A DNA stretch of 64,000 bases from Psammoneis japonica (lineage: Eukaryota): positions 62,001 through 126,000 of the forward strand of contig QPGO01000158.1 of assembly GCA_008632985.1 (NCBI GenBank). Direction: 5' to 3'. The notes under the pieces were generated by a model. That model was not told where the DNA came from, made no database searches, and worked only from the letters and a program-made list of their open reading frames with translations. Numbering within the stretch: the stretch's first letter is position 1; every line of letters starts with the position of its first letter. Made by a program: the position numbers and the translations under genes. Below, one piece after another: positions 22,022 to 64,000 of the stretch.

Positions 22022-22330
22022 GGTCGCTTATCGAAAAGATGGAAGTCACCACACAGTGAGCCGTAACAAAGCAATCAAGCGAGCCATCATGGTGGATGAT
22101 GGCAAAATAAAAAAAAAAAACTGCCGTGTCAGTCAGTCCGCCCACCGTAATCGAATCACCCAACGCTCGCGCCGCAGCAACTAACACGACTCGACCTCGT
22201 GCTTCCACGTGTAGTCTCTAGGCCATAAAGTCTAAACCTTGGGACCGATACCCCCAGCATTGTTTCGCCAGCTGTTCGACCATGAGCTTAGGGCATAACA
22301 GCAGCCGTTCCCCGTTCACCATATCATGCT

Positions 22331-29575: not shown

Positions 29576-30899
29576 TTAAGATGTCAAAGCGCACGCACGA
29601 CGCCCAGACGACTAACGTGTGGTCGAATGAATCGGTTCTCCTAGTCCATAATGATGATGTTATCCGACACAAAAAAAAACAACCATGGCGGCAGCAACAG
29701 CCGCTGCTCGATGTTGTTGCAAAACCTTTTCCCACAACAAATATGAATGCATAACATTCTCTATTTTTTTCTCATAAGTGTATCCACTAAAAGAGAGGTA
29801 AGAGAAAATCCAAAAATGGATAAAAACTCCCTTCTGTTGACATTGCTGCTTTTGATGATCCATCTCACAACTTGCGCGTTTCAATTTCTTTTTGTACTGG
29901 ACAGATTGACGAGCACCGAACCTCTTTCTTGGTAAAGAATAATGACTAAAACTCCTTCTGATGTTGCAAAAAAAAAAACTCGCGGGCGCCGTTGTTCCAC
30001 TTTGCCGCCGCTACAACACGCCACACTCCACACTCAGGCTTGTGAAACATTGCATTTTATGTTAAATGTGCAATTCTTTAGAACCATGCAATGCACACAA
30101 AAATGATCTTGTATAAGAAAAATAACTACAAACATTTTCATGGCAATAAAAATGCATGTAAAATGCAGTGCACAAATGTGCATTTCCCAAGTGTGTGTCC
30201 CGCGCTTTGCAATGAGCGGCGAAATGCCACGCACGAAAAGATCTTCTCTTCCACCTCTTCAATGTTCACCTTCATGGTTTGGGGGGTCGGGATCATCACT
30301 GAGTGGCTCACGACCAATGTTCTTCAAAGAATCATCATGCTTGCCGTTGCAATGCAACGATGAGTGAGCTCCGTTTGGATGGGTGGCTCCCCCAATCGCA
30401 TTTGCGGGGCTGGCAACTGCAGCCAAAAATTTTGTGTGGTGATGCATGACAAAGCTCATCTCGCGATCGCTCTTAAGTGCATTTATTGCACATCAACACA
30501 CGTGTTGTTGCCAACAGAAAATGACTGAAAACATTTTTTCAGGACTTAAAATGTGTGTCAAATGCTCACATTTACATTTGCCACGTTGACAAACACAATG
30601 TTTTGCAAGCCTGTCCATGCTGGCATCTGCAAGACCGGCATTGCTTGACGCAGTCGGCGTTTGAAGGCAGTGTGATGGTCAGCGTGGAAGTCTTTGGAGT
30701 GACCTTTCAAGGGTTGATGGTGTTGAGGAGCATGGTGGCGCCGCTGGCGCTGTTGATGCACGATTGGTGATCTGCAAGAGCAGGTGGCACTGTGGCAGCT
30801 GTGCAGTGTGGGAGTCGGCGGCGTTGGAGCAGTTGCTCGTGATTTGTTGCATTGCATTTGCACTTTTGTCCTAGAGAGCTCATCTCTGTGGCATTGTTT

Positions 30900-33800
30900 C
30901 TGACTTCAGTCATCAACAGCATGTTCTGCAGGGCACGCAAGTGCCGCTGCTGCTGCAACTGTTGCGACTGCTGGTGCAGGAATCGGCGGCCTTGGAGCAG
31001 CAAGTCGGCATGGTGGTGGGCGGCGTGGCAATGGCAGGCGGAGTGGCAGGCAGTGGTGTTGGAGTGCTGCCAGGCAGGTGGTGCAGGAGTCGGCGGCATT
31101 GCAACAGCTGGGCAGTGTGGGGGTTGGTTTGGCTGGAGCAGCTGGCTTGTGCAGGGAGTGGGTGGCATTGGAGCAGCTGTGCGGCATGGCAGTCGGCGGA
31201 GTTGGAGCAGCCAGGAGGTGCAGGAGTTGGCATGTGGGATGGTGCATTGCTGCATGGGAGTCAGCAGCATTGGAGCAGCTGGGTGCACTGGAGTGGGAAA
31301 CTGTGGGTTTATTTTGTTGTCGCCGACTTCAACCCATCATCACCAAGTTGGAAACTCAGGGTCGACACCGATGTTGTTCTTTGATCGGATCCTCTTCCAT
31401 TTTCGCTTTACAAAGTTGGATTCTACCGCTTTTAGATCATCTCCGATGTTGCACCCGCATGGCACCTCCCAGAAGGCCACCCGGTCCTCCGTTGGCACCG
31501 CACAGCATGCTGCTGTGTTGGCCGCCACCTTTCTGTCGTGTCTCGGACCTTTGCGATTCAAGCCGCAACGGAAACACCGCTGTGCTGTTCGACTGGGTGC
31601 CTTTCTTTTTCGATCATCTTGACTTGGTGGAGGCTCTGGCATTCAGATGTGTTGCCTGCTCTTTGCTGATTCCATCACAGCTGTGTTCCGGGCCGGTCTG
31701 CTGATCTGCGCTGGCGGCAAATTCACCAGTTGGCATTCTCCAGCTGCTCCAAATGGCTCGGATCTTTCAGGTGGGCTTGGAAGGGGTGGTCAAAAGGTTT
31801 GCAGTCGTGCGGTTGCGTGCATGTCTTTTCGTAGCCTGTTGGACTCACTGCTGACGACAACTGTTCTCTCTGCGCCAGAGTCGGTGCGCATCGTGCTCGT
31901 TTGACAAACAGTTTTCTCCCTGAGTTTCTGATGCTCGACCTTTTTGTGCCGGCAGTGGGCAGAAAGAATTGATGCTGTCTTCCTGAACATTTGGCGACGC
32001 TCACCAAGTGGTTTCTGCCATTTAGTGTCTACGAGATCGTCCCAACAACCGTTCATTCTGGCAAAATCGTACAACCCACGCTGATTTCGGTTGTTGCGGC
32101 TGTATTTTGCGAACAGTGGAAGCATTTCCTGAAACACTTCAGCTTTGTGTCCTGTGACTTGTGTCACAGGAATTCCATCCCGACCATCACGCTCGGCGAG
32201 GAACTCCATTGCGTCAGACATGGCGGTCTCCACTGCATTTGCCAGCGACTCAGCTGAATTCTTTGCACGCAGCAGTGCCATGCATCGATCCTCAATTGGA
32301 GTGCAAGTGCCTCCTCCGGCGAATCCAAAGTCATTTGGGTTTGCAAGATCCCCTTGGCACTGGTGCATTCCGTGCTCTTAGTTGGCAGTTTGCATGTTGT
32401 GGACAGTTTCGTGATTGTAGAACTTGTCGCACTCGGAAGAAGCAAGTCCCCTTTCTGTGGCCCGATCGTGGTTCCATCTGTGCACGAATGTCGCCAGAAG
32501 GCACACTGCCAGCAAGGGTGATGAATGACATGCAGCCAATGCTTCTTTAAGATGCTTGTGGAAACCCTCAAGTTGTGACGTCCCACGAACACAATGCAAA
32601 GTCGTCTTTCCACTCATCGGTTCGGTTCGGACGCAGTGGCAGTCGAAGCCGGGTTTGTCACTGACCCACCCTTTCTTTGTGTGTCTGACAAAGTTGAAGT
32701 GCACTTTCCAAGTTTCCTTTGAAAACAGGAGTTCACCTGATTTGGCACACTTGACATCAGCGATGAATCGAACGGCATTCTTCATGCGGGACAGAAGAGC
32801 ACTGGGCTCAGGTGTGATTCTCTCAATGTCTGCCAATGTCTTGGATGAAGGTCGACTCATCCTCCTTTTAGCCTCCTTTTTTGCTTCCTTGGGATTGTTG
32901 TGCCACCGACCATGCACACGGTTTGCCAGCTTTTCTGCCAGCTTCTCGATTTCAACGTCAAGCTTCTCTTGGTTGATCAATGGCATCAAGTCACAAAGCA
33001 GACCCGAACCTTCTTCGTAAAAGCCATGTTTCTTTTTCCAGGTTTTTTTAATGTCCTTCAGGAAATGAAAGGGATCACCTTTGACTCCGTTTCGTTTGTA
33101 GACCTCAGCTGCTGCTTCATCCCCAGTGAGCATCTCGATGTCGCCGTCCTCGCAATCATGTTGCAGCACTGCAAACTGAAGCTGATCGTCGTCATGGTCA
33201 TTTCGAATGCCATGCGATTCTGGGAACTCACTGAGACTGGCACCTCCTGGCAAATGCTCTCTTTCTTCTTCACTAAGATGGAGGCCTTCCAGTGAGTCTT
33301 CGTGCTGCTCATCACTGGGATTGATGTCTGCTCCAACGCTCACGCCTTGATCATTGTCTGTGCCATTGATTGTGACATTGTCCATGCCGTCTTCATCGTC
33401 AGTGCCGTCGATTGCGCTGCTGTAACCTGCGTGACAGCAGCCACCTTCATCTTGGTCGGCTGTTGCATCAGGACTGCTTCCGGCTTCGTCGAATGTGTCA
33501 TTGTCTGTGCCGTCTTCATCATCAGCGATGTCGATTGCATTGCTGTCACCGACGTGATCGCACGTGCCACCTTCATCTTGGTCGGCTGTTGCACCAGGAC
33601 CGCTTCCGGCTTCGTCGAATGTGTTGTTGTCTGTGCCGTCTTCATCGTCAGCGATGTCCATTGCGTTGCTGTCACTGACGCCATTGCATGCGCCACCTTC
33701 ATCTTGGTCAGCTGTTGCATTTGGACCGCTTCCATTTTTGTTGAATGTGTCATTGTCTGTGCCGTCGATTGCGTCGTCGTCTGCATCGTCTTCGGAAAAC

Positions 33801-36691
33801 TTGTGACGAGCTGCAGCACTCGTCACGTCTGCCTCGGTTGACAAAACCATTCGGGATTGCTTCCATGGTGCAATGCGATTGCCCCCGACCATGGAATCTC
33901 TGAGTGTTGCAAATGCCTTGTCTGCTTTGTTGTAGAAAGGATGGGGCACTTTCGCGCTCGGATTGACCACAGCCTTGACTGCGACCTTTGTGTCCTCGCA
34001 CGTTCTCAGCTTCCCATCAACAAGCTCCTCGGCTTTCATGTTTACATCTTGCATGTTTCCACATGCAACAATGGTGTTTGACGTGAGAGAAAAGAGACGA
34101 ACAGGAAGTCCAGGTTCCAAGTCGTCTTCACTCGGCTTTCGATGCATGGCTGCGAGCTTTTGCAACTCATGCCAAAGTGCCAGTGACAGCCAAGCATCCA
34201 GTGCGGCATAAATCACTGGCTCGAGACGCAATTGCTGGGTGCTCCATTTTGACCTGGCAAGGCTTTTGTCAACACGACATCCCAAGAATTTTTTGACCAT
34301 TGTTTCCATCTTTCTACGTTCTCCTTGCTGGAACAATCCGTGCCGGTCAGCGACGTCTCGGCAGTCAAAAGTCTTGATCAAGTCAATGCCAAACAGTTGT
34401 TCAGGACAATGACTTCACAGTCTTGTCACATCGCCTTTCACGTTCACGCCAACCAGGTGCACCTTGGAATGTGCAAGAAGTTGACGCAGAATCCCGTGTG
34501 TCTCACACCACCCACTGACGTTCGGAGCACCATGTCGGCCGTCGCTGTTTCTTGTCATGTTTGGAAATGCTGCCCACAATTTGATCACGCCAACTGACCG
34601 AGGGCACGGGTGGTCAGTTGCAATCTGCACCACAATGGGAACTTGGTTTTGCAAGTCATCATTTGTCAAGCTGTCCCACTCCACGTCGAAACCCACGCAC
34701 ACTTTGTCCTCAGCAACTTCGTCGACAGCGGTCAAGATTGGGAGGCAGAAGTCCTTCAGCTCCTTGCACATGTCCATCACCAGTGGATCAACCCCGTCGG
34801 GCAAGGAAGCCAAAGGAACTGTTGCGGCTTGATTTGCGTTGCTTTTGTCCAATCTGCCAAGGGGTGGCATTGCCCTGACAATCATTGGGCACTCATGGCA
34901 GCAATTGTCAGTGTAGAACAATTCAACTTCCTCGCAGGCGTGCACCTTGTGCCGATGTTGGACCACCTTCAAAATGTTTTCAACCTCTTCACAGTCTCCG
35001 CTCCGAACAAAGCGAATGTCCACCACCTGGTTGCATTCATTCATTGCAGTGTAGACAGAATCACATGCTCGCACGCTGCCGCCGGTGGCGCCAGTGACAA
35101 ATGCAAACTCAATGACCTTGCACGACTTGTCACCGAAAAGAACCTTTCCTGACACCATTTCAAGACATCTTTCAAAGTGTGGCAGCTTGGTGATGACACG
35201 ATTCACAAAGACACTTTGCAGATGCTGCCTCGACGGAGGACTGCGCACTCGCACCGTGTCGAATTTTGCAGTCATCGCATTTTCGAACTCGGGCTTCGGC
35301 ACGCTCTGAACAGTGCCTCGCAATTTTGGGTTAAAGTGCACAGCTTGAAACTGCTCCTTCAATTCAAAATGCTTGTTCTTTTGTTTTGCAGCAAGTTCAT
35401 TGTGAATTGCATTGAAGCTTCTTTTCGTCGAGACCGCCTCGACAATGTGGTTTGACAACTGCACTGTCACAGCCCCACGTTTCGTCATTGCTGCATTGAA
35501 AATGCCTCTCACGTTGGTTGTGAGATGAGCTAGCACCTCATCACAATGGCCAGCAAAATGGTGAGGATGGTTTTCAATGTCCCCACAATCTTCATCACCC
35601 ACTCGGAATTCGTCTGGAGCCGCATCTCGCAGTTTCCTAGGTGATTTAATGCTGCAACAGTGTTGACCCAAAAACATGCTTCCGACTGACCCATCTTCAT
35701 CAATGAATGTACGAACGAAGTTGTTGTAAAAAAGATCTCTGCAAGTGCAGGGTTGTTTGGTTTCCGTGTCGCATCGGAAGCCGTGCCATTTGCATGGCAT
35801 CTGACCAGTCGGCAGCAGGTGTGGGGCCGTTCTGTTGGGAGAAAAGAATGTCATTTGACAGAAGCACTTAACCAGCATGTCCACAAATGTTGGGGCTCTC
35901 TGAAGCTTAAAAGGTGCTGTCCATTCACATTCTTCAGATTTCCAAGGGAAATCCTTCGCCCCAGTTGAATGCCGAATGTGTTGATTTGATTGTTTGCATT
36001 TGTTTTTCATGTCCTTTCTCAGCTTGTGCATGACCTCTCCAACAATTTTCCAAAACATGCGTGGCACTTGCTCCATGTTGACACCCGGGAGGGGGTCTTC
36101 ATCAGTTGGCTCTTTTGCAGCCTGTTGCGGTGCGTCTGCAGGTGCATCTGCAGGGACGACCTCAGGGTTGTTGTCGTCACAGTCATTTTCTAGAGGAGCT
36201 CCAGCAGCAGCCCCTTGCACAACAACAGCTAAATTTCCATCGTCTGTCAATGCCTGACGCCTCCGTGGTAAAAAGAAATTTTGTGGGGCCCTTGCTTCCG
36301 CTCGGCTTGCTGCCAGCTGTCTGTTTTGCTTGAGTTCTGCAGCAAGTCGCCGGTCCCGATGCTGCCGCTCTTTTTCCTCTTTTTGCTTGTCCCTTTCAAT
36401 CTGTGCATTCGTCCTCCTGTTGTGTGTGCTTCCTCCAGCACGCCCCCGCCCCTTCTTCTTTTGCAGTTCCGACTCCCGTCTCACACGCGGATTTGCTGCG
36501 TACGGATTTGCCACCGGCGCGTGTTGCGATGCGGGTGCTTGTGTTGTTGTCAGCTGTTGCGCTTGATGCTGTTCTTCCTGACCTGCTCTTCCTTGCTGCT
36601 GCAACAAATCTGATGGCAATGCAGCTTGATCTGTGCCTTGCTGCGCCATTGGAGGCCGTGGCTCAGAAGGATCAGCTGCTTCTTCTGACAT
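30900..36691 (-). pseudogene. Degraded DDE-type transposase with an inserted DEDDy 3'-5' exonuclease domain
   Basis: Consecutive ORFs 34415-36697, 32378-34381, 31790-32368, 31340-31642. Transposase-like motifs LFGDKS, TAMNECNQV, FYTDNCC, GDPFH, RGTSQLEGFH. Exonuclease motifs GFDVEW, GVNVKGD, YAALDA. Confidence 0.75.
33350..33780 (-). repeat. 126-bp (42-aa) acidic coding tandem repeat, about 3.3 units
   Basis: ccaccttcatcttggtc at 33441, 33567 and 33693; unit DEDGTDNxTFDEAGSxPxATADQDEGG..SNAxDIAD. Confidence 0.92.
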
Positions 36692-37328
36692 CGTCAACGC
36701 TGCAAGTCAATGTTGACATTGTTTTTCCTCTCGTTTTGGCGTGTTGATTGAAGTGTGAATGAAACAAAGAGGATTCCCTCTTTCCTGTCGTCACACAATT
36801 TGCACCATGTTGGACCGTTCATTTCTGCTTGTCGTCACAGAAATGGAGTTGTGTCGTCACAGGATTCTGCACAAGTTCCAGTGCATTTCCCACACGATTT
36901 ATGAAGAGCTGCCTGCGCAGCTGGACGATTGCCGAAATTTCGCGCAAAACATGATGTCATGATTCACCCGCCCATGGTTCAGTCTGGACGGTTGAGCCAT
37001 TGACCCACGGCCGCGGCATCCCCAATCACCCACACACCATTTTGCATGATGTTCTCCCACCAGAATCTGCTAAGAAGACTGCTTGGGTGGATTGAGCATG
37101 CTTTGTCGGCCGCCCTTCTTTTGCTCTTCTCACTCTTCTCAATGGCTCAAATGAGAGACAAGGTGGTCAAGAGACACTCTCAAACAGAGTTGCTTTGGCA
37201 GCTTTCCATGCTGACAATCCAGCTGCTGAGCTGATTTGCTCTGAAAATCTGAGGCACTTTCTGAGCTGTGCAGTTGGTTCTTGCACGCTCTCCTCTCTGT
37301 GTGCATGATCCCAAAAAGTGCGCACACA

Positions 37329-37359
37329 AGAGAGAGAGAGAGAGAGAGAGAAGAGAGAG
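37329..37359. repeat. (GA)n microsatellite
   Basis: agagagagagagagagagagagaagagagag. Confidence 0.9.
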
Positions 37360-38572
37360 CTTTGCGAGAAAAGGAAGACAGGCAGGTCAAGCAGCTCATG
37401 CACCCGCAGATGTGAAGGCACTTTTTGAGCCATCCAACAAAAGTTTGTGAAGAAAGCTGGGTCAGACAAAAGGAAAGAAAGAGGGGGATCAACAGTGAGT
37501 GGCCGACATCAATGCAGCCAAGGCTCTGCGATTGAAAAGAAGAAAAGAGTCGTCGATTGACACAACGCTTCAAATGCATGAAGTCATTTGCATGCCCCAT
37601 GCATCTGTCAAAAGTGTGCAAAAAAGCTCAGTGAGAAAAGAAAGGAAAAAAAGTGGCCTTGGCATTTGCAGATGACAGGGCGCTTTTTTTGAGCACTCAA
37701 GCTGGTCTCACTCTCCACCATGCTGAGTGCGCATCTGTCACAAGTGTGTGAAGAAAGCTGGGTGAGCAACAGAAGAGGCAGATCAAGTGGTTTGTGCCAA
37801 GGTGGTTGGGGCTGCAATTGAAAAGAAAAAGAAAAAAAGAGAAAAATGTTGATTTGCTCAAACACGTCACACTCTGAATGCAAACAGTTTTGGTGAATGT
37901 TCTCCCAAGCAAGTGTTTCAAATTCAAGAAACATGGCTTTTCTGGTGATGGTGCTCTGATGTGTGAGGATTGCTGCAACAAAAATGACAGCCTTGAGTGA
38001 GCAGCTTGCCCCAAATGCTGTGCCTCCCTCTGTGAAAATGATTCTCACTGTGCAATCCCAGCCACATGCGCAAAGCCCATGTGAGGGATTCATTGGTCAT
38101 CTTCCTTGTGCCAAAAAAGACAATTGTGGTGGAGAGACATGGGGATGATCCAACTGTGGTGAAGATGATTTCATTGAAGAGCAATGCGCAGCAATTTCTA
38201 AGAATGTGAAGTTGAATGCCAACAGCCACTGTGCAATGAATGTGTCTGTTGTCTTTATCTTCTCCATCGTCTCTATTGCTGGCAACAATTTACGCATGTG
38301 TGGAGGCTGTTAACATGAATGCAAGGATTGGGACACGCATGCTGGCCACTGGTGATTCAGACATCAGTGGTGCGGTGGCTTGCCGTCAAAATGCTCGTGA
38401 TGAAGTTGTGTAATGTGTGTTAATGTATCTTTTTCTAATTTCGATCAACACTGTACTGTTTCACAATCTTCCTCGCACATCATTCCTTCCTTCGCAGGTC
38501 GAAAAACAACCACCGCGAGTAATATATTTATGATATATCGACTGCATTAAAGCATTTGGAGATTCCATACAT

Positions 38573-50936: not shown

Positions 50937-51173
50937 GGCAAATTTTTAGTTTTTTTGTTCAACCTTCAGTAAACCTCCTCTAAAATCGAAGTGGAACGCA
51001 CAATCTTCTGTCGACAACAGCAAGTAGAGGAACGAGAACTTGCGGTTGTGAGCGAGCAGCAGTCTCGAAGTCAAGCGAAGAGGGGAAGCGCCGCCGAGTT
51101 GACCATGGCCGCTGGCTGCTGGCTGCTGGCCGCTGCTCTCACATGCGTGCGGCTGCGCAGCCGGCAGGACATG

Positions 51174-51958
51174 TGAAGAATTTACCATGTGATCTTATCG
51201 GAATTAGTGTTTAGAACTGTATATTTGGCGATTCGGAACGGGAAGACTCCATCCGAGATCTAGTCACAATCTTAGAAATAGTAGCACGATGTTACAACGA
51301 TTTTCTATAACTTTACTCTCTAGCAAGCGACTACAGGGTAATTTATTCACTTTATCAGAGCCATCGCCGTATGTAACGACAGTGGTAATGATTGCTACGC
51401 TTGCGAACGACTCGCAATACGACCATTCGTTCCAACTTGTCAGAGATGACATGAAAACATCGACGAACGTGAGACGACGTTCGTGCTTGACGAGTATGTA
51501 ACTCCCAGGGCTAGTTCGGCCGTAATACTTATGGATAACAAAAGTATCGACTGTCCTGATGTGTCTTATGAGCGTAAATACGCGGACACAGAGCGCAAAA
51601 TTGGATCTGGGACGCCATTTCCATACCGAAGTTATCTCGGAGGCAACCGCGTGGCGATTTGAAATCGCCGAGTGAGCATATATACATATCCAAGTTGAAT
51701 ATGTAGACGCGATATAATTAATAAATTATATATTTAACCTCACTAATTAATAAATTATATATTTAACCTCACTATTGGTCAATGTAAAACAGGGAGCGAG
51801 CACGTCGCCGATGATCGGCACATGCATTATTCGATCACGTAGATTGTAACAGTAGCCGTTATATCTGAATCTCGACACAGATATTAATCCACGTGGATTA
51901 AATATAAACCGCTATCTGTAGACACGTTGATCGTAGTTATAACGATTACTTTTATCCA
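51174..51958 (+). repeat. 5' LTR of the copia element (3' end approximate), TA-rich and unmutated
   Basis: Begins TGAAGAATTT; first 177 bp match 58400-58576; contains a 29-bp AT-rich tandem duplication at 51715-51772. Confidence 0.8.
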
Positions 51959-52063
51959 ACGGTGGAAAAGCGATACGAAGTTCGCGCACCTCACTCACTT
52001 TTCGTGCACAACCACACAAAAGTTTGCGAGACACGTAAAACTCACCGTTTGTAACCATCAACC

Positions 52064-55000
52064 ATGGCAGCAGTCGCAGCAGCGATGCGTGCTGCCTGCG
52101 CCCGACTGGGGTTTACCGCGCAGGCAGCCGCGGCTTTAACCGATGAGCAGGGAATCGACTCAGTCGATGAACTGCGTCATCTCGATGACCACGAGGTCGA
52201 GACCTCACGCAAGGTCATTCGTCGCCCAGGAGGGGCTGCGGCAGGAAATCCGCCGGCAGGTGGGAACGTCCAACCCAACCTGGGGACGTCAGTCCCATTG
52301 CGAGCCGAGACGAACCTCAAGCTCACCGCACACACGGCTCGTCACTGCGAGCGCATGTCGCGGACGTTGCGAGCTGTTGACATCAACCTTGCACGAGTGC
52401 GAGGCTGCCGCCACTTCCGCACTGTGGAGGAGACCTGCAAACCGCCCGAAACGCCACCAACGATCATCGAAAAGGACTGGCCGAAGACGATCGAGTCAAT
52501 TCAGGAGCATCTGCGGGCATGCCGAGGCGAAACGAAGATGCCGCTGTCGCACGTCATCCGTGAGAACCAGGAAGCAACCGCCGAGGCCGACGATCGGCCA
52601 CCAACTACAACGACCCGATCGAGGAGATGATCACGAGGGCTCCCCATCTCACTGCTGGGAACAACCCTCAACCCACCGAGACGTTCACGGCCGACAACAT
52701 CAAAGTGTGGGAGATTGTCGCCGGCATCACTCGGGAACATGCGAGTTGGGCTTATGTCAAGCCAGCCCAGAGGCGCCAGGATGGCAGGACGGCCCACCTG
52801 AACCTCTACAACCATTTCTTGGGCCCCAACAATGTAGACAACATGGCGAACGCTGCTGAAAAGAAGCTCGCCAGTCTGTCCTGCCATGGGGAAAAGCGCA
52901 ACTGGAATTTCGAGCGCTGCGTGCGTGTTCATGTCAAACAACACGCGATTCTGGACGGCTCAAACGAGTGTGGTTACGCCGGGATCGACGCACGATCCAA
53001 GGTCCGCCATCTCCTTGCAAGTGTCAAGGACTCGTCGCTTGACTCAGTCAAGATGCAAATTGTGTCTAGCGCAACGTTGCACAATGACTTTGATGCTTGT
53101 GTTGTCCTGTTCAAGGACTTTATCAAGCAGTCCAAGCCGGACAACGACCGAAACGTCTTCGTGTTGCGGCTCTCAAGGCTGGGAAGCGCAAACGAGAAAC
53201 CGTCATTCATGCCGATGACATGGAGGACAAGTGCCACCCTCCCAAGGAGCACAGCAAGCTTTCTCCTCAGGCCAGGAAGAAGCTCAAGTCGCTGCGCGAC
53301 ACACGTGGTGACACGAAGAGCGGCAAGGCCACGGCGGCCGGCAATGCCAAGCAGATCAGAGCTTTGACCAAGATGGTCGTGGCGATCTCAGCTCAGATGG
53401 ACAATTCATCCGATGAAGGCAGCAGCGAATCTGAGACTGAAGAGCCAATGAAGCCTCCGGCTGCCAAGCAGGAACGGAACCGAAACAACAAGGCGTTGAT
53501 TCGTGAGGCTGCTCGCAAGCATGTCCCCAAGGCTGGATGCTGCAGGAAGTGACAGCCAGTGGTGGCCGTCATGCGGCTCAGTCCGTTGCAGACCTCATGC
53601 CGACCCAGACGAAGGTTAAAGGACCGTCGCGAGAAGAGTCTCGCACGGACATTGACAGTCATGCAGACATGAGCGTGCCAGGCAAGCACGCTTTAATTTT
53701 ACTTGACCATGACAGGCCAGCAGACACAGAAGGGTGCGACCCGACTTTGGGTGCCAGCAAGCGCCTGCGTACAGTCAGTGGAGCTGTCACCTGTGCAGAT
53801 CCTCAGACGGGCCACCCACACGTCTTGGTTGTCCACCAAGCAGTCCACAAACCACACCTTGAGCACAACTTGCTGTGTCCAATGCAGTTGTGGCTGAATG
53901 ACGTGGAACTTTCATTAAAACCGAAGTTTCTGCTGACAAAGCCCAACGACAAGGAACATGCGATTGTCGCCAAGGATGCCACGGCACTTCATTGGCCATG
54001 CCTTTAGACCTGGAGGGAGTCTCGAGCTGCTTCCCCTCCAGTGTCCCGACCTCAGCTCAACATGAGGATGCGGCCCAAGATGGGAGCGTGCATGAACTCA
54101 CGCATGAGTCCCCGGAATGGGATCCCGCCTCCTCCAATTTCCACGCCAGGGAAGATGCCATGACCGATGCTCTTGGCAGAGTGCATGAGACCGGGGACGA
54201 CACGCGTCCTCACGCACACATCATGAGCACAAAGCTCTCACGCACTGCAGCTCAAGAGACCTCAGATGCCCTGGGGAATCAGCCGTTGCATGATGTTTCC
54301 GATGCATGCGATGATCATTTGCTGCTGGCATCCATGAAACTGTCTTCGCTCAAGACAACGAAGCGCGGCTTCAAGGTTGACGCTGAACGTTTGGCCGAGA
54401 ACTGGTCCGTCAGCCTCAAGGATGCTCAGAACACTCTCAAGGTTACGACACAGCGTGGAGCCAGGACAGTTCTGCATCCTGTGCCATCACGACGTTTCCG
54501 CGCCAATGACCGACAACTGCGACACAGGCGCATCTCAAAGGAGATGCACTCCGACACCTTGTTCTCCTCTGTCAAGTCTAGATGAGGGAATTTGTGCGCG
54601 CAAGTGTTCGCAATGTCCAATGGGTGGGCACGCGCTTGTGCAACACACAGCCACTGACAAGAGCCAATGTGTCACGGCGACGTGTTGCAGCCTTTAAATG
54701 TCACAAAGGGCATGACAAAATAACCTTTTGTCTGCATGCATGCTGCATTGTGAATTCACAGCGGAGTGGCACATCGCAACCATTGGGCAGGAGGCCAGGG
54801 GTTCGAAACCCTGAGTGGGAGTTGTCTGCAGCAACGTTGATCACTGTCGAACGCGCAAAACTCTGTGCAGTTCTGCACGTTCCTTCGCACGTACCCACAC
54901 TGTTCCGCCAAAACCGTGCAGTGTCAGTGCACGTTAGTAAAGAGCCGCATGGACGCGTGATGCATGGGGAGGAGTGCAACACACAGCTGCCAATGAGAGC

Positions 55001-58000
55001 CAATGTGTCACGGCGACGTGTTGCAGCCTTTAAATGTCACAAAGGGCGTGACAAAATAACCTTTTGTCTGCATGCATGCTGCACTTGTCCATTGAAGTCA
55101 AAACGTCTGGCGCACGAGGCGTTGTCGTTGCTCTTCACGCAAGAAGGCGTGCCCCATGCTGTGCTGGTAGACGGGGCGAGAGAAGAGACAATGGGGCAGT
55201 TTAGCAAGAAAGCCAGGGAGGCCGATTGCCACATTGGACAAACTGAGCCATGTGCCCCTTGGTCTGACACCGCAGAGGGCGCAATTCGTGAACTCAAAGC
55301 GAGGCGTTGGGCACAAGATGGTTAAGTCACAGGCCCCAAAATGCTTGTGGGATGATTGCCTGGAACTGGAAGGCCTTGTTGGGTCTAACACGCTCGAAGC
55401 ATCTGTGAGCTTGACGGTGAAGTCCTGGAAACTGCAGTGTCTGGTCAGACGGCTGACATCTCGCACATGTGTGAACTCGGCTGGTGCAACTGGATCATGT
55501 TTCGAGACACGGCAGTCTCATTTCCCGAGGACAAGGAAGTCCTGGGACGATGTCCAGGCCCGAGCAGGGATGCAGGCCCTGCTGTGACGGTCAAGACACT
55601 CAAGGAGAACGGACAGGTCGTCCATCGCTCATCTCATGGGGCACTGACGCCCGAGGAACAGGAGCACAAGACGCACCTTGCATTGCGTGAGAAGTTCGAC
55701 AGGTCAGTGGAGGTCAAGCCAGGCCCGGGTGTGACCGTCGGGGACTTTGATGACCCTGACGCAATTGCTCCCACCTTCGAACCGTGCGAGGATGACGAGG
55801 AACAGGATGTTCCGGCCAGTGCCTCCGATGAGGATGACACCCCAGACGAAGCCTACGATCAACATGTCAACGCAGAAGCACTGCCACCTCACGGGGACAT
55901 GGAGCAGACTGGGACAGTGAAGCGACGCAAGCTCAATCCGGACGGCACACCTGCCGGACGGGCTGGCCCAAACCCGACACTTGACACTCGTGTGCATGAG
56001 GTCGAGTTTCCTGATGGATAGGAAGCGGAATTCGCGGCGAATGTCATCGCTGAGAATGTGTTCGCACAGTGCGACAATGAAGGCAACCAGCACTTGTTGC
56101 CAGATGCAATCATTGATCACAAGACTGACGGGCATGCAGTCAAGAAGGAGGATGCCTTCATCCAAGACAGTGGAGGACGTCGATCCATGCGCAAGACTGC
56201 CAAAGGCTGGCATCTTTGTGTGCAATGGAAAGACGGATCCACATCTTGGGAACGACCATCCGACTTGAAGGAATCCAACCCAGCAGAGACAGCAGAGCAT
56301 GCTGGGGCTAGATCCACAGAGGACGAACCAGCCTTTGCCTGGTGGGCCCCCTTTACCTTCAAGAAACATCAGCAGATTATGGCCGCTGTGAACAAGCAAC
56401 ATCACAAGTGCACTCACAAGTGCGGGGTGCGCATTCCCAAGACCCATGAAGAGGCAGTCGAGATCGACAAGGCTGACGGCAACCGCTTGTGGCAGGACGC
56501 CACAGACAAGGAGATCGATGTCGTTTCGAAGGCCTTTGAGATTATCGACGACGACGAGGAACTCGTGGGTTGCCAGCATGTTCGCTGCCACTTGGTCTTC
56601 GATGTCAAACTACAAGACTTCAAGCGGAAGGCTCGTTGTGTTGCAGGGGGGCATGCCACTGAACCTCCAGCGACTCTGACGTGTGCAAGCATCATCTCCC
56701 ATGAAAGTGCAAGGATTGCCTTCGCTCTAGCGGCTCTAAATGACTCAGAGGTTAAGGCTGCGGACATTGAGAATGCCTGCATCACCGCACCTGACAGCGA
56801 GAAGATCACTGCAACTCCAGGACCTGAGTTTGGACCCAATGCTGGGAAGCGTGCCACAGTTGAGCGTGCATTGCATGGATTGAAGAGTGCAGGTGCATCC
56901 TTCAGGAACCACTTGGCATCTTGCATGCGCCATCTTGGATGGGAACCATGCCTGGCTGATCCGGATGTGTGTGTGAAGGCACAGGTCCGACCGGATGATG
57001 GGTTCCGTCACTGTGCCCATGCACTGTTGCATGTAGACGACGTGCTTGTGGCACACCACGACGCTACGTTGGCACTCAAGGAATTGGACCGGCACTTCAA
57101 GATGAAACCCGGATCCATCGGTGACCCTGAGATGCGCCTCGGGGCGAAAATCCGTGAAGTGCAAATGCCGAATGGTGTCTGCGCATGGAGCATGAGCTCT
57201 AGCAAGTGCATCCAACAGGCCATTGAGAATGTTGAGGGGCATCTAGATGAGACTGCTCCCGGATGGATGTTGCCACGCAAGGCAACTTCTCCGTTTCTGT
57301 GCAACTGTCGACCGGAACTCGACATCACGCCAAAGCTTGATGCAGAGTGGGCCCGATTTACCAGTTGCAGGTGGGATCCTGCGCTGGATGGTGGAACTCG
57401 GACGAGTCGACCTCACAGTGGAGGTGTCCGAGCTCGCCTCATTCCTCGCCATGCCTGGAGAAGGTCATCTCGACGCAGTCCTGCATGTGTGTGGACACCT
57501 CAAGAATGGACATGATGCCACGCCAGCGTTTGATCCGACGTGCCCGGATGTTGACATGTCTGACTTTAAGGAATGTGATTGGCAGGCATTTACAGGGACA
57601 TTGAGGAGGCAATTCCGCCAAATGCACCAGAAGCTCTGGGCAAGGACATTGATCTACACCCATTTGTGGAATCAGATCATGCGAATGACAAAGTGACGAG
57701 ACGCTCTCGCACTGGTTGTTTTGTCCATTGAATGTGGCACCAGTCACCTGGTTCTCCAAGCGCCAGAGTGCCATCGAGACTTCAGTCTTTGGTGCTGAGT
57801 TTGTGGCTGTGAAGCAGGGCATGGAAGCTTTGCGAGGCCTGAGGTGTAAACTCAGGATGATGGGAGTCCCGCTCAGCGGACCATCACACATTTGTGGGGA
57901 CAACATGTCAGTTGTCCACAACACCCAAAGCCCAGAGTCGACTTTGAAGAAGAAGTCTAACTCTGTGTGCCACCATGCCGTGGGGAGTCGGTGGCTGTGG

Positions 58001-58135
58001 GTGAGTCCCTTGCAGGACACATTAGATCGGAATGCAATCCGGCTGATCTTGCAACCAAGATCATGCACGGTGGTGTCAAACAAGATGGCCTCGTTGGCAT
58101 GATGCTACACGACACATTTGATGACAAAGGATGAA
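52064..58135 (+). pseudogene. copia gag-pol pseudogene
   Basis: ORFs 52064-52630, 52627-53367, 53537-54007, 53992-54585, 55437-56021, 56058-57515, 57716-58102; frameshifts and systematic Tyr->Cys/His. Confidence 0.93.
54639..55083 (+). mobile_element. TRIM (445 bp) nested in the copia integrase
   Basis: 109-bp TG..CA LTRs at 54639-54747 and 54975-55083, PPT ggggaggag, 4-bp TSD CTTG; removing it restores GWARACPLKSK. Confidence 0.92.
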
Positions 58136-58399
58136 AGAAGAATGAACAGTCGCTTCTTCGACTGTTTCTTTTTCTGTTTCTCCTTGCATCTGCGAGCATG
58201 GGAGCTCACACCAGCGGGCATGTTGGCTCGCATTCCTTCCATGCGCCTCTTGGAAGGGCACAGTTGGACCGGCACCCTTTCCCAATTCGGGTTTCAGCAG
58301 GTTGCTGGGGTTTCCTTGTCACTTGGTTGTGGCTAAATGCTGTCGGAGTGTAAATTGGATCAATCCGATTCAGTGTCTGCTTCAACGACTTGAGGGGAC

Positions 58400-58576
58400 T
58401 GAAGAATTTGCCATGTGATCTTATCAGAATTAGTGTTTGGAACTGCACATTTGGCGATTCGGAACGGGAAGACTCCATCCGAGATCTAGTCACAATCTTA
58501 GAAATGGCAGCACGATGTTGCAACGATTTTCTGTGACTTTGCTCTCTGGCAAGCGACTGCAGGGTAATTTGTTCAC
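58400..58576 (+). repeat. Truncated, hypermutated 3' LTR
   Basis: Ungapped 177-bp match to 51174-51350 with 14 substitutions. Confidence 0.95.
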
Positions 58577-59714
58577 ATGCCGGTAGGGCAACATGTCAGC
58601 AGCGCAGAGTGAGCTCACAAGAACATGGCTGTGATGCCTCACTGACAAACCAAGAAGGTTGCTTTGGAGGGAACATGTTGCTCAAAATGGAAATCTGACC
58701 AACCGTGATTTGGTCTCACAACAAAATGTGGCAGTCTTCTCAAACTCCAAAAGCCCGGCTGTGCAGGGACTCTTGTGTTCTTCCTCCTCCTTCAGCTCCC
58801 AGAGAACGAGCCCCTTCTCTCAAGTGTGTGCAACTGGGACCAGCTTGTCAGCCACACCAGTGGTGGCAGGTTTGACAAGCTTCTTGGTGGCCAAGCTTTG
58901 CTGTCATCTAACAGAAATTTCCTCCTCTTTCCTTTGCTCTCTGGTGGCAACGGACACAGCCCACTGGCCGCTTGAGGCACACAATTTGCAAATGTGGAAA
59001 GAATCTGCCTCAATGAGGGAACAGGCATTTTTGCACCAGTCACAGCTGGTGCTTCTATTTCCTTGATTTCTGTGGCTGGGGGGGGATGACCCCTGCATGG
59101 CTGCAGGTGAGCCTGTCCCAACAATGCCTTTGTCCCAACAAAGCCTGGGCATCTGCAAGAAGACTGGAGTGTGATGACAATGATGACAGTGGCTGTCCTT
59201 GCTGCCCTTTTTAGGACAAGAAAGAGGAGCACTGCCACCAAGTGCAACAACATGAGGACTTTGGTTGTCTGACCACTTGTGGCTGCAGCAGAGTTTTGTC
59301 CTTGCATCCATGGCAAGAGCCAACAGCGCCTTTTCAGATCCTCAGCTGATGGGACACCCAGCAGGACAAATTTTAGAAAATGGCAGCAGCTTCAACACCA
59401 CAGCCAGCAATGATGGTGCATCAAGGTTCCTGTGTGTGTGATTTGAGCACATTTTTCTTTTCAAAACACAGGCTTGTCTCAAGATGGAAAAATTGAGCTG
59501 CCCCAGCACCAACAAAACAAAAAGGTGTTTTTTCTGGGACACGTGTGAAGCTCAGATGTGCAAAGAGAGTCCTTTGTCAAGCTGGACAGGACTCAAAACA
59601 AAAAAATCTCATTTTGTTTGATTTGAACATTTGGAAAAGTTTGGCAGAAATTTGAACTTGAGCAAACAAAGCTGAGATGTTTTGCACAGTGTTGACACAC
59701 TGTGACGTGCTGCT

Positions 59715-60360
59715 TGGGATGTGAAGTGCATGTTCAAAAGCTGAAGCTGCAAACCATTTTGCAAAAGAGACTTTTCTGTTGGCTCACACTTTGCCACCAG
59801 GTCTCTCTGTTGGCTGCCCTGACTTTGCTTGCCATCACAAGAGCTGCAGCCAAACAAACCACACAAACTGTGCTCCACCCTTTGAGACTGTTCCTTGGGA
59901 CATGGAAAGTGAGCTCAGAAGCTGAGAGTGCAAACACTTTGGCAGAAGTGACTTTTTCTGCTGGCTCACACTTTGCCACCAGGTTTCTCTGTTGGCTGCC
60001 CTGATTTTGCTCTCCTGCCACAACTGCAGTCAAACAAACCACCCAAACTGTGCTCAACCTTTTGGGGCTGTTTTCTAAGACATGGACAGTGAGCTCAGAA
60101 GCTGAGAGTGCAAACACTTTGGCAGAAGTGACTTTTTCTGCTGGCTCACGCTTTGCTGCCACCAGGTTTCTGTGCACACCCAGAGGCTGCTCTGCTGCCA
60201 AAACTGCAGCCAAGAAACACACCCAAACTGCAATCAAGCCTTTGAGGCTGCTCCTTGGGATGTGAAGTGTGTGCTCAGAAGCTGAAGCTGCAAGCCATTT
60301 TGCAGAAGAGACTTTTTCTGTTGGCTCACACTTTGCCACCAGGTCTCTCTGTTGGCTGCT
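59715..60360. repeat. 180-bp tandem repeat, about 3.5 units
   Basis: gctga(ag/ga).tgcaa at 59740, 59921, 60101 and 60281. Confidence 0.9.
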
Positions 60361-61699
60361 GCCGCTTCATGGGCAAGTCCCAGAAAATTGGTCATTGACA
60401 CAATGCAGCTCTTTTGTCCATCACCCTTTGTGCCAAGTGGAAGCACACCCGGTGCAGAAAGCTGGAGCTGATGCACTCAAATGACAAATGCAAAAGCATG
60501 AAACAAAAAGAGTGCCAACACACCACAGGGAAGTTTTGGTGCTTGCTGACAAACAAGGGCAAAAGGCAAAACACAAAACTGGCTGTCATGGAGGTCCTGC
60601 CATTGTTGTCAGCATGAGTGCAGCACCACTTTACATGCACAAGATGGTTTGCGGACACAGACATGTACAATCTGTGGCAGATTGTGCACTGCCATGCCAC
60701 ATCACATTTTTCTTGATGCAACAGTTCAGATGAGCTCTGCCGCTGGTTGATGCACTGGAATGGCCCAATTTGCTTGAACTGCAAAAGTCATTGGCTGCCC
60801 CAAAATTTGCATGAGAGGCCAATGGACAAACACAATGATGTTGTTGTGGCAGCGGCATTGTCAGCACTTTTCCACTGCCATGCAACAGCACAATGTTGTT
60901 TTTGATGGAACAACACAGATGAGCACCAATGGCTGGTGCATCAGAATGGCCCATTTTGCTCAAACTGCAGGAGCTTGCTGTTTTGTTCAAACTTGTGTGA
61001 GACCAATGCACCATCACAAGCACTTTGCTGCAGCCTTGTTGCAGTGTGCTTTTCTTTACAACACAGATGAGTGCCAGTGGCTGGCACAAGAGAGCAACCA
61101 AATTTGTTCAAACCAGGAGTCACCAGCTTGTCCAAATTTGAAGGAGAGGCCAGTGGTGCCAACACAATGACAACATGGTGGTGGCATGTCAGCACTTTCC
61201 TGCAGCTGCACAACAGCATGTCTTTCATGATGTGTCAAGAGGGCAGACAAGCATTGATGGCTGATGTGAAGGAACAGTCTGTTTTGCTCAAACTGCAGGA
61301 GTTCATCACATTCTTGTTCAAGCTTGCATGAGGCAGCCATCAGCATGTTTTTATGATGATGTGGCTGAGTTGTCAGCACTTTCTTGCAGCCTTGCAAAAG
61401 TGTGTTTTGACAGCATAAATGAGTGCAGGTGAATCTGTCATGTTCTGGCACAAACAGAAATTTGGGGATGCACTGGGCATGACAATGTTGCTGTCATTGG
61501 CAGACTGCCAAGGTGCACTTGAAATGTTGGTTGGTGAGCGCGAGTTTGGCTGTTGCACCACCCCCACATGAGTGCTTCAGAACTGCCATGAGTTGATCTT
61601 CAGATGGTCCTGATGCATGATTTGGTCATTTTGGAAGACTGGTGGAGACTGTGCTTTGAATCCATGGGGCACCCTGCCTGGACAACAAGCAACTTCCAT

Positions 61700-62735
61700 G
61701 TTGGCAATTTTTGCTTTTTAAGTTGCCACAAAAGAAGTCTCAGCATGCAGCCCAAACACTCTGATGGCACATGCACACTTGTGGGACATTGTCACTTGCA
61801 GAGACAATGCTGCAGTGATCATGAAATGGCGGGAACTTCAAATGAAGGCCTCTGCTGTTGTGCCACAGTGGAGTGCAGCATCTTCACTCCTTGTGTCTCT
61901 TTGTGATGTCTGCGTGGTGCCACACAGAATTGTGCATGGTGCATGCATGCATGGAGCCCCTCACATTGGGTTGCACTTGCACACCAAAAATGAGCTCTCC
62001 AAGCTGTCCATGGCTGTGACATTGTTTCCTGGAAAAGGTCAGGTGAGTCATTGTTGCATGAGTCCATTGGCAGGACCAACATCTTGCATGTTCCTCATGG
62101 GCAGACAAGCATGCACAGCGTTTGGCTGCTGCTGTCTGCAAGTCAAATGTGGCAGCACCCTCTGGCATTGAGGAGATCTGATGATGACACCCACCACACA
62201 AAGCTTTCAAGCTCATGCAGCATGTCTGGACATGAGGAATTGGGTGGGGCAATCTTTTGTCCCCATTGTTGAGCTCACGGAAATTGCCAACAAACCATGC
62301 CACAAAATCTTGCTTTGGCAAGGAAAATGATGGAGCTGCGCACTGCAGACACAGTTGGTTGTGTGCTCAGCAATGCCAACTTCATGAATGTGCTCCACTT
62401 TCTTTCTCAGCATTGCTTCACATCCCCTTGGGGCTTTGCAAAGATGTCTGCAACATGGCACAGCATGATCCTCTTTGAGCTTGGTGTGCTGACAGGAACC
62501 CCCTTTCCACTCGCCTGACATGCCATCAAGCAAGGACTCACACTTGCTCAACAAACTGAGCAGCTTCATGTTCTGGTCACTGCCAAGACCTGTTGCTCCC
62601 TGCATTGTGTCCTCAAGGCATGCTGGCACATGCTCAGCATCTGAGATCTTCACAATTCTCAGTTCTGTTGCTTTCTGAAAACAGTGCCTCTGGATCTTGA
62701 AAACAAATGAAGGTTTCTGCAGTGGCTTCTGCACA
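61700..62735 (-). pseudogene. Ty3/gypsy reverse transcriptase remnant
   Basis: LLSKCESLLDGMSGEWKG, KLKEDHAVPC, PKQD..FVGNFRELN..KRLPHPIP, LPMDSCNNDSPDLFQE resemble gypsy LLxKYxxLFDGTLG, DFRELN, PYPIP, LPMG..SPDxFQ. Confidence 0.75.
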
Positions 62736-64000
62736 CTTCAATGGCATCTTGTCATTGACCTTTGGCCACTCCAGCATGTCTCATCCAACAACCATGTGTC
62801 AGGTTTGCATGATGATCAACTGTGTGTGTGGTTGACTTTGCGCACAAGCTCTGCTGTTGCAGACAACTCTGGCAACTGAAATTGGTGATGCAAGCACTGT
62901 GTGCCATCTTGAAGCTGCCTGCCAATGTGGTTTTGGCTGTTGTGTGGCTCAAAAGCCATTTGCTTGCAGCACTTGGCATCTGGCAGCACATGCTCCTGAT
63001 GCTGCCATCTGGCACTGCTTCAATCATTTCAGGCTTGCCTTCACCATGCTTGGCATCCATGGCTGCAAACAACATTGCTGCCAGTCAAATGTCTGTGCTT
63101 GACATGTGTGCAGGGTTGGCCTGTGCAACATGAGTGTGATGGCACAACAAGTGATGCACTGAACCTGTCTGACTTGCACTGGCCTGCTTGTTCTCAGGTG
63201 CTGTTGTCCTCCAAATCCTTGTTGGAGTCACCCAGGGAGAGGGCACAAAAGTAATTTGGCTCCTCTTTGCAAGCCTTGCACACCACCCTGCAGTTCTCAA
63301 GCACATCTTCAACTCTTGCCTTGGCAGGAGCTTTGTCAAGCTCCTCATGAGTGGTGTGCAGTTTCTGTGTGGCTGGTTTCTGATTGCTGTTCATGTGGGA
63401 CATCTTGAGACATTCCACCCCATGCCTCAAAATGAGATGTTCTTCCACATTGTGCACCTGGCACTGTCACCACCATGCAACACTCAGCATTTGATGCCTT
63501 TCTCTCCTGACTGGCGACCCCAGCACTTTTGAGGAATGTCCATTCTTCCATGGCCCTGGTGCTTCATGGGGACATTGTGGCACGACCTTCCTGCTTGCCT
63601 TTGGCAGAAACAAATTTTGCAATGGCATGAGTCCACGGGTCAAAATCCTGTGAGATTGTCTGCCTTTGCCATGTGTTTGGAGCGCTTCATTCAAATGAGT
63701 CAACCAACTCATCTTCTGGCAATGATGCAGGTGCAAAACCATTTTCAATCACAGACAGAAACAGCAAGATGTGGCCATTCAGCTCACTGACCTTTGTGGC
63801 ACAGAGTCACCTGTCTTCACACCATTTGGCTTGAGTGCAAAACATCACAGAGACAACATGCTTTTGCAGCAGCACTGCCTTGTGCAGGAAGATGCTTTCA
63901 GTCACCTTTGAGATGCACACCTTGAACAAAACCACATTGGCCCCCCCCTGATGCCCCTTTGACACACCATCATCAAATGCAGCAAAGACACTGCCTTGTT

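Follow-up and report, generated by a model that had tools for sequence, protein, structure and literature searches.

A probable tract of TpA-directed A:T-to-G:C hypermutation across a Ty1/copia retrotransposon and other blocks of a diatom genome

To our knowledge, the hypermutation that eukaryotes were known before 2026 to direct at invasive DNA as a genome defence was of the C-to-T kind, whether by repeat-induced point mutation (RIP), by APOBEC enzymes or through decay of 5-methylcytosine (5mC). The closest described system is now that of the chlorarachniophyte Bigelowiella natans, in whose mutation-accumulation lines two integrated viral regions gained 231 new mutations, of which 230 were A>G or T>C, all on TpA (Mettrop et al., April 2026, bioRxiv 10.64898/2026.01.13.699255). 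According to the main text of that preprint, the rate is ~6e-7 per site per generation (~1000-fold above background), the genome holds 124 TpA-depleted clusters that are enriched in reverse transcriptase (RT) and DDE domains, and an ADAT2 homologue is a candidate for the enzyme. Here we describe a 64,000-nucleotide stretch of the diatom Psammoneis japonica (hereafter the window; positions 62,001 to 126,000 of contig QPGO01000158.1, assembly GCA_008632985.1), in which most of a Ty1/copia long terminal repeat (LTR) retrotransposon at 51174-58575, and several other blocks, are severely depleted in TpA. We think it very probable that a genuine hypermutation of TpA to TpG or CpA (A:T to G:C), acting at the level of DNA and confined to particular regions, shaped this locus.

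The likeness to B. natans, as far as the preprint's main text describes that system, is close. Nearly all changes are A>G or T>C; they lie only at TpA, give TpG or CpA depending on the strand, and are confined to particular regions of foreign DNA. Of the 14 differences, 13 between the two LTRs here fall at TpA, as do 46 of 108 codon changes (TA>TG/CA), and both TpG and CpA occur as outcomes. The likeness is less clear as to whether mobile or foreign DNA is the target and host genes are spared: the copia element is converted and recognisable host genes lie in normal blocks, but an exonuclease gene and the blocks without domains are of unclear class. When the preprint's numerical criterion for TpA-depletion clusters (bioRxiv 10.64898/2026.01.13.699255) is applied to 1-kb windows, it picks out three clusters, 13001-20000 (7 windows), 30001-38000 (8) and 56001-64000 (8), which take up 23 of the 64. 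An earlier reading of this locus from its letters (the original prediction) knew of no description of such a process, a statement outdated by some months through the B. natans work. For diatoms, we found no report of TpA hypermutation in the literature searched, subscription journals lying outside that search.

The evidence begins with the ends of the element, which are as follows.

51170-51173, no strand: left copy of the target-site duplication, CATG, identical to 58576-58579
51174-51349, plus strand: 5' LTR in the unmutated state, TG...CA, with 18 TpA in the 177-bp alignment
58400-58575, plus strand: 3' LTR in the mutated state, with 13 of 18 TpA converted (10 to TG, 3 to CA) and one CpG changed to CpA
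58576-58579, no strand: right copy of the target-site duplication, CATG, matching 51170-51173

Aligned without gaps over 177 bp (51174-51350 against 58400-58576), the two copies differ at 14 sites. At 10 of these an A in the 5' LTR faces a G in the 3' LTR, preceded by T (TA/TG); at three a T likewise faces a C, followed by A (TA/CA); and at the last a G faces an A, preceded by C (CG/CA). No difference lies outside TA or CG. The alignment contains 18 TpA in the 5' LTR and five in the 3' LTR, and the chance that at least 13 of 14 randomly placed differences would land on the 36 bases within TpA is 1.2e-8. Conversion of 13 of 18 TpA, compared with 0 of ~125 other bases, gives a rate excess of at least ~50-fold, a bound that is simple arithmetic on the counts of this LTR pair and describes a footprint of past change rather than new mutations. 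Given that TA is ancestral (see below), the 3' LTR carries 14 derived changes and the 5' LTR none. These counts are just as the original prediction gave them. Its LTR length of 177 bp holds for the alignment but not for the LTR itself, which is 176 bp (51174-51349 and 58400-58575) and ends in TG...CA: a contig of another copy diverges exactly after 51349, base 177 is shared by coincidence, and the CATG duplication lies outside. Because of the TG...CA ends and the perfect target-site duplication, both LTRs can be assigned to one insertion. The single CG/CA site is put down to CpG decay, an ordinary process distinct from this one.

Comparison with related sequences shows TA to be the ancestral state and TG/CA the derived one. 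We used 564 codon columns at which at least 60 homologous polyproteins show at least 80% agreement. At the 24 columns where Tyr is conserved, this copy has a single Tyr, 11 Cys (TGY), 10 His (CAY), one Arg and one Thr. Many other residues are well kept (G 50/52, A 42/43, D 40/43, P 39/41, K 33/35, F 15/17, W 15/18, H 12/13, C 7/7), and retention is lowest for M (6/12), V (18/30), I (9/14) and R (31/48), at which the changes are mostly of the TA or CG classes. The 108 changed columns comprise 46 single TA>TG/CA changes, 18 single CG>TG/CA changes, seven other transitions, 24 transversions and 13 changes that need at least two steps. There is no Tyr at all among the 497 residues of the RT frame, and the RT motifs depart from the family consensus accordingly (LLYVDD to LLHVDD, ALYGLK to ALHGLK, TLTYAS to TLTCAS, and ENAYLT to ENACIT). 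A general bias from AT to GC, such as biased gene conversion, was considered and rejected, the non-TpA transitions at conserved codons being four towards GC and three towards AT.

Two further comparisons point the same way. An independent LTR copy, joined to its own downstream flank, has the TA state at no fewer than 7 of 8 informative sites (49 of its bases, spanning six informative sites, align with the 5' LTR and one of them differs, and its overhang adds two TA). In another purged gene of the window, unrelated to the element, the 42 positions that are Tyr in its relative P0242 have become 5 Tyr, 12 Cys and 10 His, among others, whereas Trp is kept at 15 of 19. The original prediction had taken the TA-rich 5' LTR to be ancestral, with TG/CA as the consensus state being what would speak against it; the LTR copy and the protein consensus carry the TA or Tyr state instead. 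Related elements are also not comparably poor in TA: 80 of them from metagenomes, fetched with two patterns of which one contains Tyr, have a TpA observed/expected ratio (o/e) of 0.38-0.90 (median 0.67). The 120 listed homologous proteins have a median Tyr content of 3.85% and a minimum of 2.27% (P0071), and none among them is a clear hypermutated relative. The paralogous segments of the window at 12.5-13.9, 18.1-19.1 and 20.3-21.7 kb provide no polarity, their exon-like flanks being in normal DNA and the repeat between them being purged in both of its copies; they serve instead in the comparison of TG/CA pairs below.

Two observations on these relatives may be recorded here. In P0071 the low Tyr content (2.27%) is accompanied by elevated His (4.33%) and Cys (2.27%), which may mark it as a relative, from a different sample, that has been converted in part. 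The metagenome relatives L015 and L002 have a CpG o/e of 0.01-0.02 together with a TpA o/e of 0.38-0.47.

Between its LTRs, the element has the following parts.

51350-52063, plus strand: untranslated leader, 714 bp, spared, with 3-18 TA per 100 bp and a CpG o/e of ~1.5-1.75
52000-52063, no strand: sharp left edge of the mutated tract, with 9-18 TA per 100 bp before it and 0-2 after it, lying shortly 5' of the ATG at 52064
52064-52630, plus strand: first open reading frame, putative Gag, TA-purged, starting with the ATG at 52064 and continuing in other frames to ~53500
53600-58128, plus strand: Ty1/copia polyprotein region, TA-purged, colinear with polyproteins of ~1350 amino acids
54635-55083, no strand: insertion of 449 bp with 110-nt terminal direct repeats (94% alike); the joint 54634>55084 is present in two contigs
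56595-57152, plus strand: RVT_2 reverse transcriptase domain (Pfam E 2.1e-10, residues 192-377 of P0001)
58392-58398, plus strand: purine run resembling a polypurine tract, directly 5' of the 3' LTR

The contrast between the two ends of the element is not limited to the LTRs. In TpA o/e (1.05-1.2) and CpG o/e (1.5-1.75) the spared first 0.9 kb exceeds all the rest of the window, and its GC content (41%) is the lowest, whereas the converted part has a GC content of 54-60%, and TpA o/e in the element interior is 0.05-0.28. There is no gradient, with 7-11 TA per kb along the whole converted length. The 5' LTR thus differs from the 3' LTR because the edge of the tract lies within the element, not because of the LTR sequence.

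Assignment to the Ty1/copia LTR retrotransposons rests on the TG...CA LTRs, the target-site duplication and the copia-colinear polyprotein, including RVT_2. The polyprotein is read in frames 2, 1, 3, 2 and 1, with frame changes near 53983, 54636-55089, 57728 and 57985. Homologues of its longest open frame are polyproteins of ~1350 amino acids with 51%-60% identity, all with RVT_2, and those that are named come from the diatom Fragilaria crotonensis and a marine transcriptome. The weak Pfam score of the RT domain was considered as a sign of decay and rejected, since intact homologues reach only E ~1e-17. Intact homologues also give RVT_2 alone in Pfam, and the order of integrase and RT is not readable from domain matches. 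The first open reading frame matched no Pfam family, and no other copia fragment was found in the window outside 51000-58700 by tblastn with 6 of the 120 homologues. The leader is a multi-copy family sequence (summed contig depth 537-990), and it contains at 51351-51362 a stretch that we take to resemble a primer-binding site. Also in the spared leader, ~300 bp upstream of the tract edge, is a direct duplicate of an AT-rich 30-mer (51716-51775; 26% GC per 100 bp), which could be a promoter or terminator element relevant to the start of the tract.

The 449-bp insertion is skipped by contigs of other copies of the element. Its depth reaches ~86,000, compared with 62 in the single-copy flanks, indicating a very abundant family of small elements. 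It carries an internal GGTTCGAAACC box, and neither it nor the copia element gave any tRNA (ARAGORN) or Rfam match.

The element is one piece of a sharp-edged mosaic, which emerges when TpA is mapped along the window, a check that the original prediction had proposed. Normal blocks at 1-12.8, 20-27.8 and 38.2-51 kb bear genes and have 22-59 TA per 1-kb window, whereas the blocks at 12.8-20, 27.8-38.2, 52.0-58.6 and 58.6-64 kb have 0-17 TA per kb. Purged windows have a TpA o/e of 0.00-0.28, and the o/e of CA/TG is 1.5-2.1 in purged blocks, compared with 1.0-1.35 in normal ones. Every block edge spans no more than 200 bp. CpG behaves differently, as the blocks at 12.8-20 and 58.6-64 kb are nearly emptied of it and the other two purged blocks keep most of theirs. 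The purged features outside the element are as follows.

12779-20000, no strand: TpA- and CpG-poor block, with 17 TA and 54 CG in 7200 bp
27800-38200, no strand: TA-purged block with CpG largely kept and Tyr lost to Cys or His
31343-36706, minus strand: gene of no fewer than 1,441 codons, broken by one stop, that encodes a WRN-type 3'-5' exonuclease domain; homology covers 31343-36448
58577-64000, no strand: TpA- and CpG-poor flanking block, with 13 TA and 29 CG in 5424 bp and a CA/TG o/e of 1.5-2.1

No protein domains were recognisable in the blocks at 12.8-20 and 58.6-64 kb. The left edge of the former coincides with the end of a repeat copy; within the latter, the stretch 58605-58900 has single-copy depth. 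The exonuclease gene is TA-purged and retains most CpG. Its exonuclease domain spans the single stop of the 1,441-codon frame, and of 5.8 billion clustered proteins P0242 (1,531 amino acids) is its one long relative. A motif in the C-terminal part of the gene product may resemble that of DDE transposases. Host genes in the normal blocks encode an ABC1 kinase, a V-type ATPase c subunit (ATP-synt_C) and an M16 peptidase. The window is diatom DNA, because all named relatives of the ABC1 kinase (top identity 74%) are from diatoms, namely Seminavis, Mayamaea, Bacillariaceae, Cylindrotheca, Pseudo-nitzschia and Stephanopyxis.

Several smaller features of these blocks deserve mention. Exon-like pieces at 12551-12776 and 13774-13960 are paralogous (73%-77% identity) to a 602-codon gene at 20219-22027 (matched span 20299-21773). 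They flank a 1-kb purged repeat copy (12779-13762; the sister repeat is at 18095-19102), which suggests a paralogue, or a fragment of a gene, that the repeat has split. Inside the block at 27.8-38.2 kb there is an island of normal TA at ~28.8-30.2 kb (4-11 TA per 200 bp), sharp at both edges, and the acidic region of the exonuclease gene contains, in purged DNA, a tandem array of three 126-bp units (33368-33817). Within purged DNA of the last block are a tandem array of four 180-bp units (59708-60360) and a 500-bp stretch with zero TA (59501-60000).

The footprint reveals several properties of the process. Both strands were hit equally, as expected of a palindromic target: at conserved codons there are 26 TA>TG and 20 TA>CA changes (Tyr to Cys 11, Tyr to His 10), and TG and CA counts in the four purged blocks are 795/826, 1079/935, 580/621 and 675/630. 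The base 3' of the A also matters. Counted on both strands, surviving TA followed by a pyrimidine (TAY) or by a purine (TAR) are in the ratio 124:246 in purged blocks and 855:705 in normal blocks (P = 1.4e-13), with the bias in the same direction in all four purged blocks. The survival ratio of TpA by 3' neighbour is 0.09 for T, 0.20 for C, 0.28 for G and 0.42 for A, which shows that TA followed by a pyrimidine is converted most efficiently, in the order T > C > G > A. The near-total loss of Tyr (21-23 of 24), compared with 13 of 18 TpA in the LTR, fits this preference because Tyr codons are T-A-Y by definition.

Conversion also occurred in place, after integration or duplication. Where two purged copies of a repeat differ at two neighbouring bases, the most frequent pairing is TG with CA (11, compared with 1 for the mirrored control GT/AC), and in the two tandem arrays such pairs number 5 and 3, compared with 0 and 0 for the control. 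Pairs of this kind between copies imply that an ancestral TA or CG was resolved separately in each copy after duplication. The process makes no new stop codons, because TAA>TGA is the only such change that yields a stop and TAA already is one. Dead genes therefore remain open while losing Tyr; stops in the converted interior are mostly TGA, and long open frames are abundant on both strands. Decay of CpG to TpG or CpA in the same blocks is evidently a separate and slower process, with a CpG-type change at 11 of 48 conserved Arg codons, compared with conversion of 21-23 of 24 Tyr codons. It probably reflects 5mC on diatom transposons. Taken together, Tyr polarity, the LTR copy and the 80 relatives that are not TA-poor bear out the targeted TpA mutator, acting on both strands of transposon DNA, that the original prediction had proposed. 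Its suggestion of repeat targeting as in RIP fared less well, as dependence on repeats is not shown, identical LTRs differ, and a single-copy flank is purged.

Support from reads comes from a public sample with three coded runs that contains the locus, whose contigs were compared with this copy. Contig depth is ~62 in the flanks and sums to 500-1000 over the element, which is matched by 2,454 contig pieces at 80% likeness or more. Because 48% of sampled 31-mers of the stretch were found in the run and flank makes up only ~11% of that stretch, exact words of the converted interior must exist in the reads. One contig bridges the 5' flank into the LTR, and another, 1,191 nt long and at single-copy depth, matches the purged flank at 58605-58900 with 0 differences. 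Places at which other contigs differ from this copy are dominated by transitions (A>G 166, C>T 178, G>A 151, T>C 161, with 15-25 for each transversion). At the best-supported 40 of 804 variant places, the others have TA (8) or CG (14) where this copy has TG or CA; the reverse sense accounts for 3 + 2 and other kinds for 13. Where a part of the element has no long contig among those listed, the gap carries no evidential weight. Run contigs thus back the variants, as the original prediction had required of reads, though the independence and platform of those reads are uncertain. Just outside the element, the unique 5' flank differs from a run contig at just two places, 50898 and 51125, both of which set TA against CA or TG (window TA and contig CA; window TG and contig TA), which may be allelic variation due to the same process.

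Among the other explanations, the one that survives best accepts the hypermutation but supposes that the LTR asymmetry came from gene conversion that overwrote one end of the element, an unmutated copy having supplied the first ~890 bp or a mutated one the remainder, with no edge made in place. Donors would be at hand in this multi-copy family (depth 500-1000 compared with 62, in 2,454 pieces), the edge near 52,000 is very sharp, and converted states do occur in several copies (at 57136, in 9 other contigs). We nevertheless regard such a mosaic as unlikely. The 4-bp target-site duplication indicates a single insertion and rules out recombination between elements, the other purged blocks of the window have equally sharp edges with no such donor needed, and the purged 3' flank extends the tract past the element.

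It is also conceivable, although very improbable in our judgment, that the bases are really TA and CG, and that modified bases in silenced blocks were miscalled as TG and CA by a modification-sensitive platform. This would account for both TA and CG turning to TG/CA in sharp-edged blocks, and the protein polarity tests are blind to the difference between a systematic miscall and a true mutation. However, the run has many exact words of the converted interior (48% of 31-mers), it matches the purged flank 58605-58900 with 0 differences, and its contigs are up to 315 kb long with even depth, unlike those expected from noisy long reads (the platform being deduced from this). Converted sites also vary from copy to copy, and TG stands against CA between copies.

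Editing of a replication intermediate before integration, by an ADAR-like enzyme on RNA or an APOBEC3-like deaminase on single-stranded cDNA, is the best-known source of hypermutated retroelements, and ADAR-type enzymes favour a 5' U (as the discussion of bioRxiv 10.64898/2026.01.13.699255 also says). It has very little to recommend it here, given the lack of strand bias (26 compared with 20; Cys 11 and His 10) and of any gradient (7-11 TA per kb throughout), the differing LTRs of one insertion, the converted flank that is not a retroelement and the tandem repeats converted in place. Finally, ordinary RIP-like CpA-to-TpA change of the 5' LTR and leader, with the TA-poor remainder as the ancestral state, would involve exactly the RIP dinucleotide pair (TG/CA and TA) and fit with the element's first 0.9 kb being the compositional outlier of the window, but it can be dismissed almost entirely: a working polymerase cannot lack Tyr (23 of 24 are replaced, 21 by Cys or His, including the Tyr of YVDD), related elements are not TA-poor, the independent LTR copy has the TA state, a process that creates TA cannot yield blocks of 0-5 TA per kb, and the Tyr columns, RT motifs and second purged gene refute it.

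Some points weigh against TpA hypermutation as we present it. A palindromic target does not reveal whether A or T was attacked, and the escape of the element's 5' 890 bp has no established reason. A strict T-A-Y rule finds only a weak trend at Tyr codons, where a preceding pyrimidine goes with 5 Cys and 3 His and a preceding purine with 6 Cys and 7 His. The run could stem from the very sample that was assembled, and there is no record of its platform, so that its support is not fully independent; the best 40 of the 804 variant places are a biased sample; and the Tyr-containing pattern biases the set of 80 related elements against hypermutated copies. In addition, the Tyr codon at 57135-57137 is His in all 9 contigs of other copies, and some conversions may therefore have been inherited or shared between copies rather than made in this copy.

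With these reservations, we picture the TpA hypermutation as follows. Conversion would have swept the copia element from ~52,000 through the 3' LTR into the flank, and would also have swept other blocks of mobile or unclassified DNA in the window. Because identical LTRs only 7 kb apart fared differently, the target must be set by position and not by homology alone. The simplest reading is that it is defined by a transcription unit or by a domain of silenced chromatin, with a border at 52.0 kb. The spared part is the promoter-bearing LTR with its leader and adjoins a gene block; the converted part runs into an older purged block. As to chemistry, it is quite possible, though we stop short of calling it probable, that an ADAT2/TadA-type deaminase is recruited to foreign DNA that has been silenced and there turns adenine into hypoxanthine at T-A. 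Such enzymes naturally act on the anticodon loop of tRNA, at an A that follows a U. The main alternative, rather unlikely but reasonable, is a thymine modified so that it pairs with G and miscodes as C.

A wider possibility, which we offer as doubtful, is that diatoms and chlorarachniophytes share an old, enzyme-driven defence that works by missense only. Guided to domains of silenced chromatin, a DNA adenine deaminase, or an enzyme that modifies thymine into a miscoding base, would rewrite T-A(-Y) to T-G or C-A on both strands; transposons and integrated viruses would be killed by missense and never by stop codons; and the tract edge within the element would be a domain border, for example between an active promoter and leader and a silenced body. 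If true, this would stand beside fungal RIP as a second system of the kind, different in its chemistry, occurring widely across the SAR supergroup and accessible to genetics in transformable diatoms.

Fungal RIP is nonetheless a functional analogue of what is described here, and no more than that. Both are context-specific transition hypermutations that disable mobile DNA within the genome, occur in tracts, affect both strands and involve the same dinucleotides (TA, TG and CA). The analogy fails on direction, on stop codons and on duplication. RIP makes TA from CA or TG and lowers GC, whereas the process here destroys TA and raises GC; RIP creates stop codons, which the process here cannot; and RIP needs duplication and affects both copies of a repeat, whereas here one LTR has 0 changes and the other 14, and a single-copy flank is purged. 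Diatoms do have DNMT4 relatives of RID, the type of enzyme on which RIP depends, with function unknown, and methylation of diatom transposons is documented (PMC9998398). Decay of 5mC at CpG accounts for the CG>CA site of the LTR and for 18 of the 108 changed conserved codons (e.g., Arg to Gln, His, Trp or stop), as well as for the CpG-free blocks at 12.8-20 and 58.6-64 kb. It cannot touch TpA, is slower here, and has left most CpG in two TA-purged blocks.

The deaminases APOBEC3, ADAR and AID also produce context-specific clusters of transitions aimed at particular sequences. Somatic hypermutation by AID is targeted regionally and has a sharp 5' edge downstream of the promoter. Here, unlike in those systems, the change is A:T>G:C at TpA on DNA, not C>U, and in contrast to APOBEC3 or ADAR editing of intermediates the changes come after integration, favour neither strand and show no gradient.

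Compared with B. natans, the present locus extends the process in several respects. The host is a diatom (stramenopile) rather than a chlorarachniophyte (rhizarian). The target is an LTR retrotransposon with other blocks, rather than the integrated giant-virus and virophage DNA that the preprint describes. Depletion reaches 0-17 TA per kb and a TpA o/e of 0.00-0.28, whereas the preprint's main text gives a Rho of 0.45 for the virus region and has the virophage region as not yet depleted. The evidence here is a historical footprint, whereas new mutations were observed directly in the B. natans lines. Flanking-base preference, tract edges and CpG are not treated in the main text of that preprint.

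It follows that the process is not a peculiarity of one species, that its targets include retrotransposons in addition to integrated viruses, and that it can shape a large share of a genome (as in the 23 of 64 clustered windows here). It leaves a recognisable class of genes that are open but dead and lack Tyr, which gene predictors will call proteins. Any mechanism has to satisfy strand equality, the 3' pyrimidine, edges of no more than 200 bp and the different treatment of identical sequences 7 kb apart, and transformable model diatoms make the question of the enzyme testable. Relative to the systems described before, what is new is a second host lineage far removed from the first, the use of an LTR retrotransposon as the substrate and a much deeper depletion, along with sharp tract edges, the differing fates of two LTRs, the 3'-pyrimidine preference, the proof of conversion in place, open frames without Tyr and coexistence with CpG decay.

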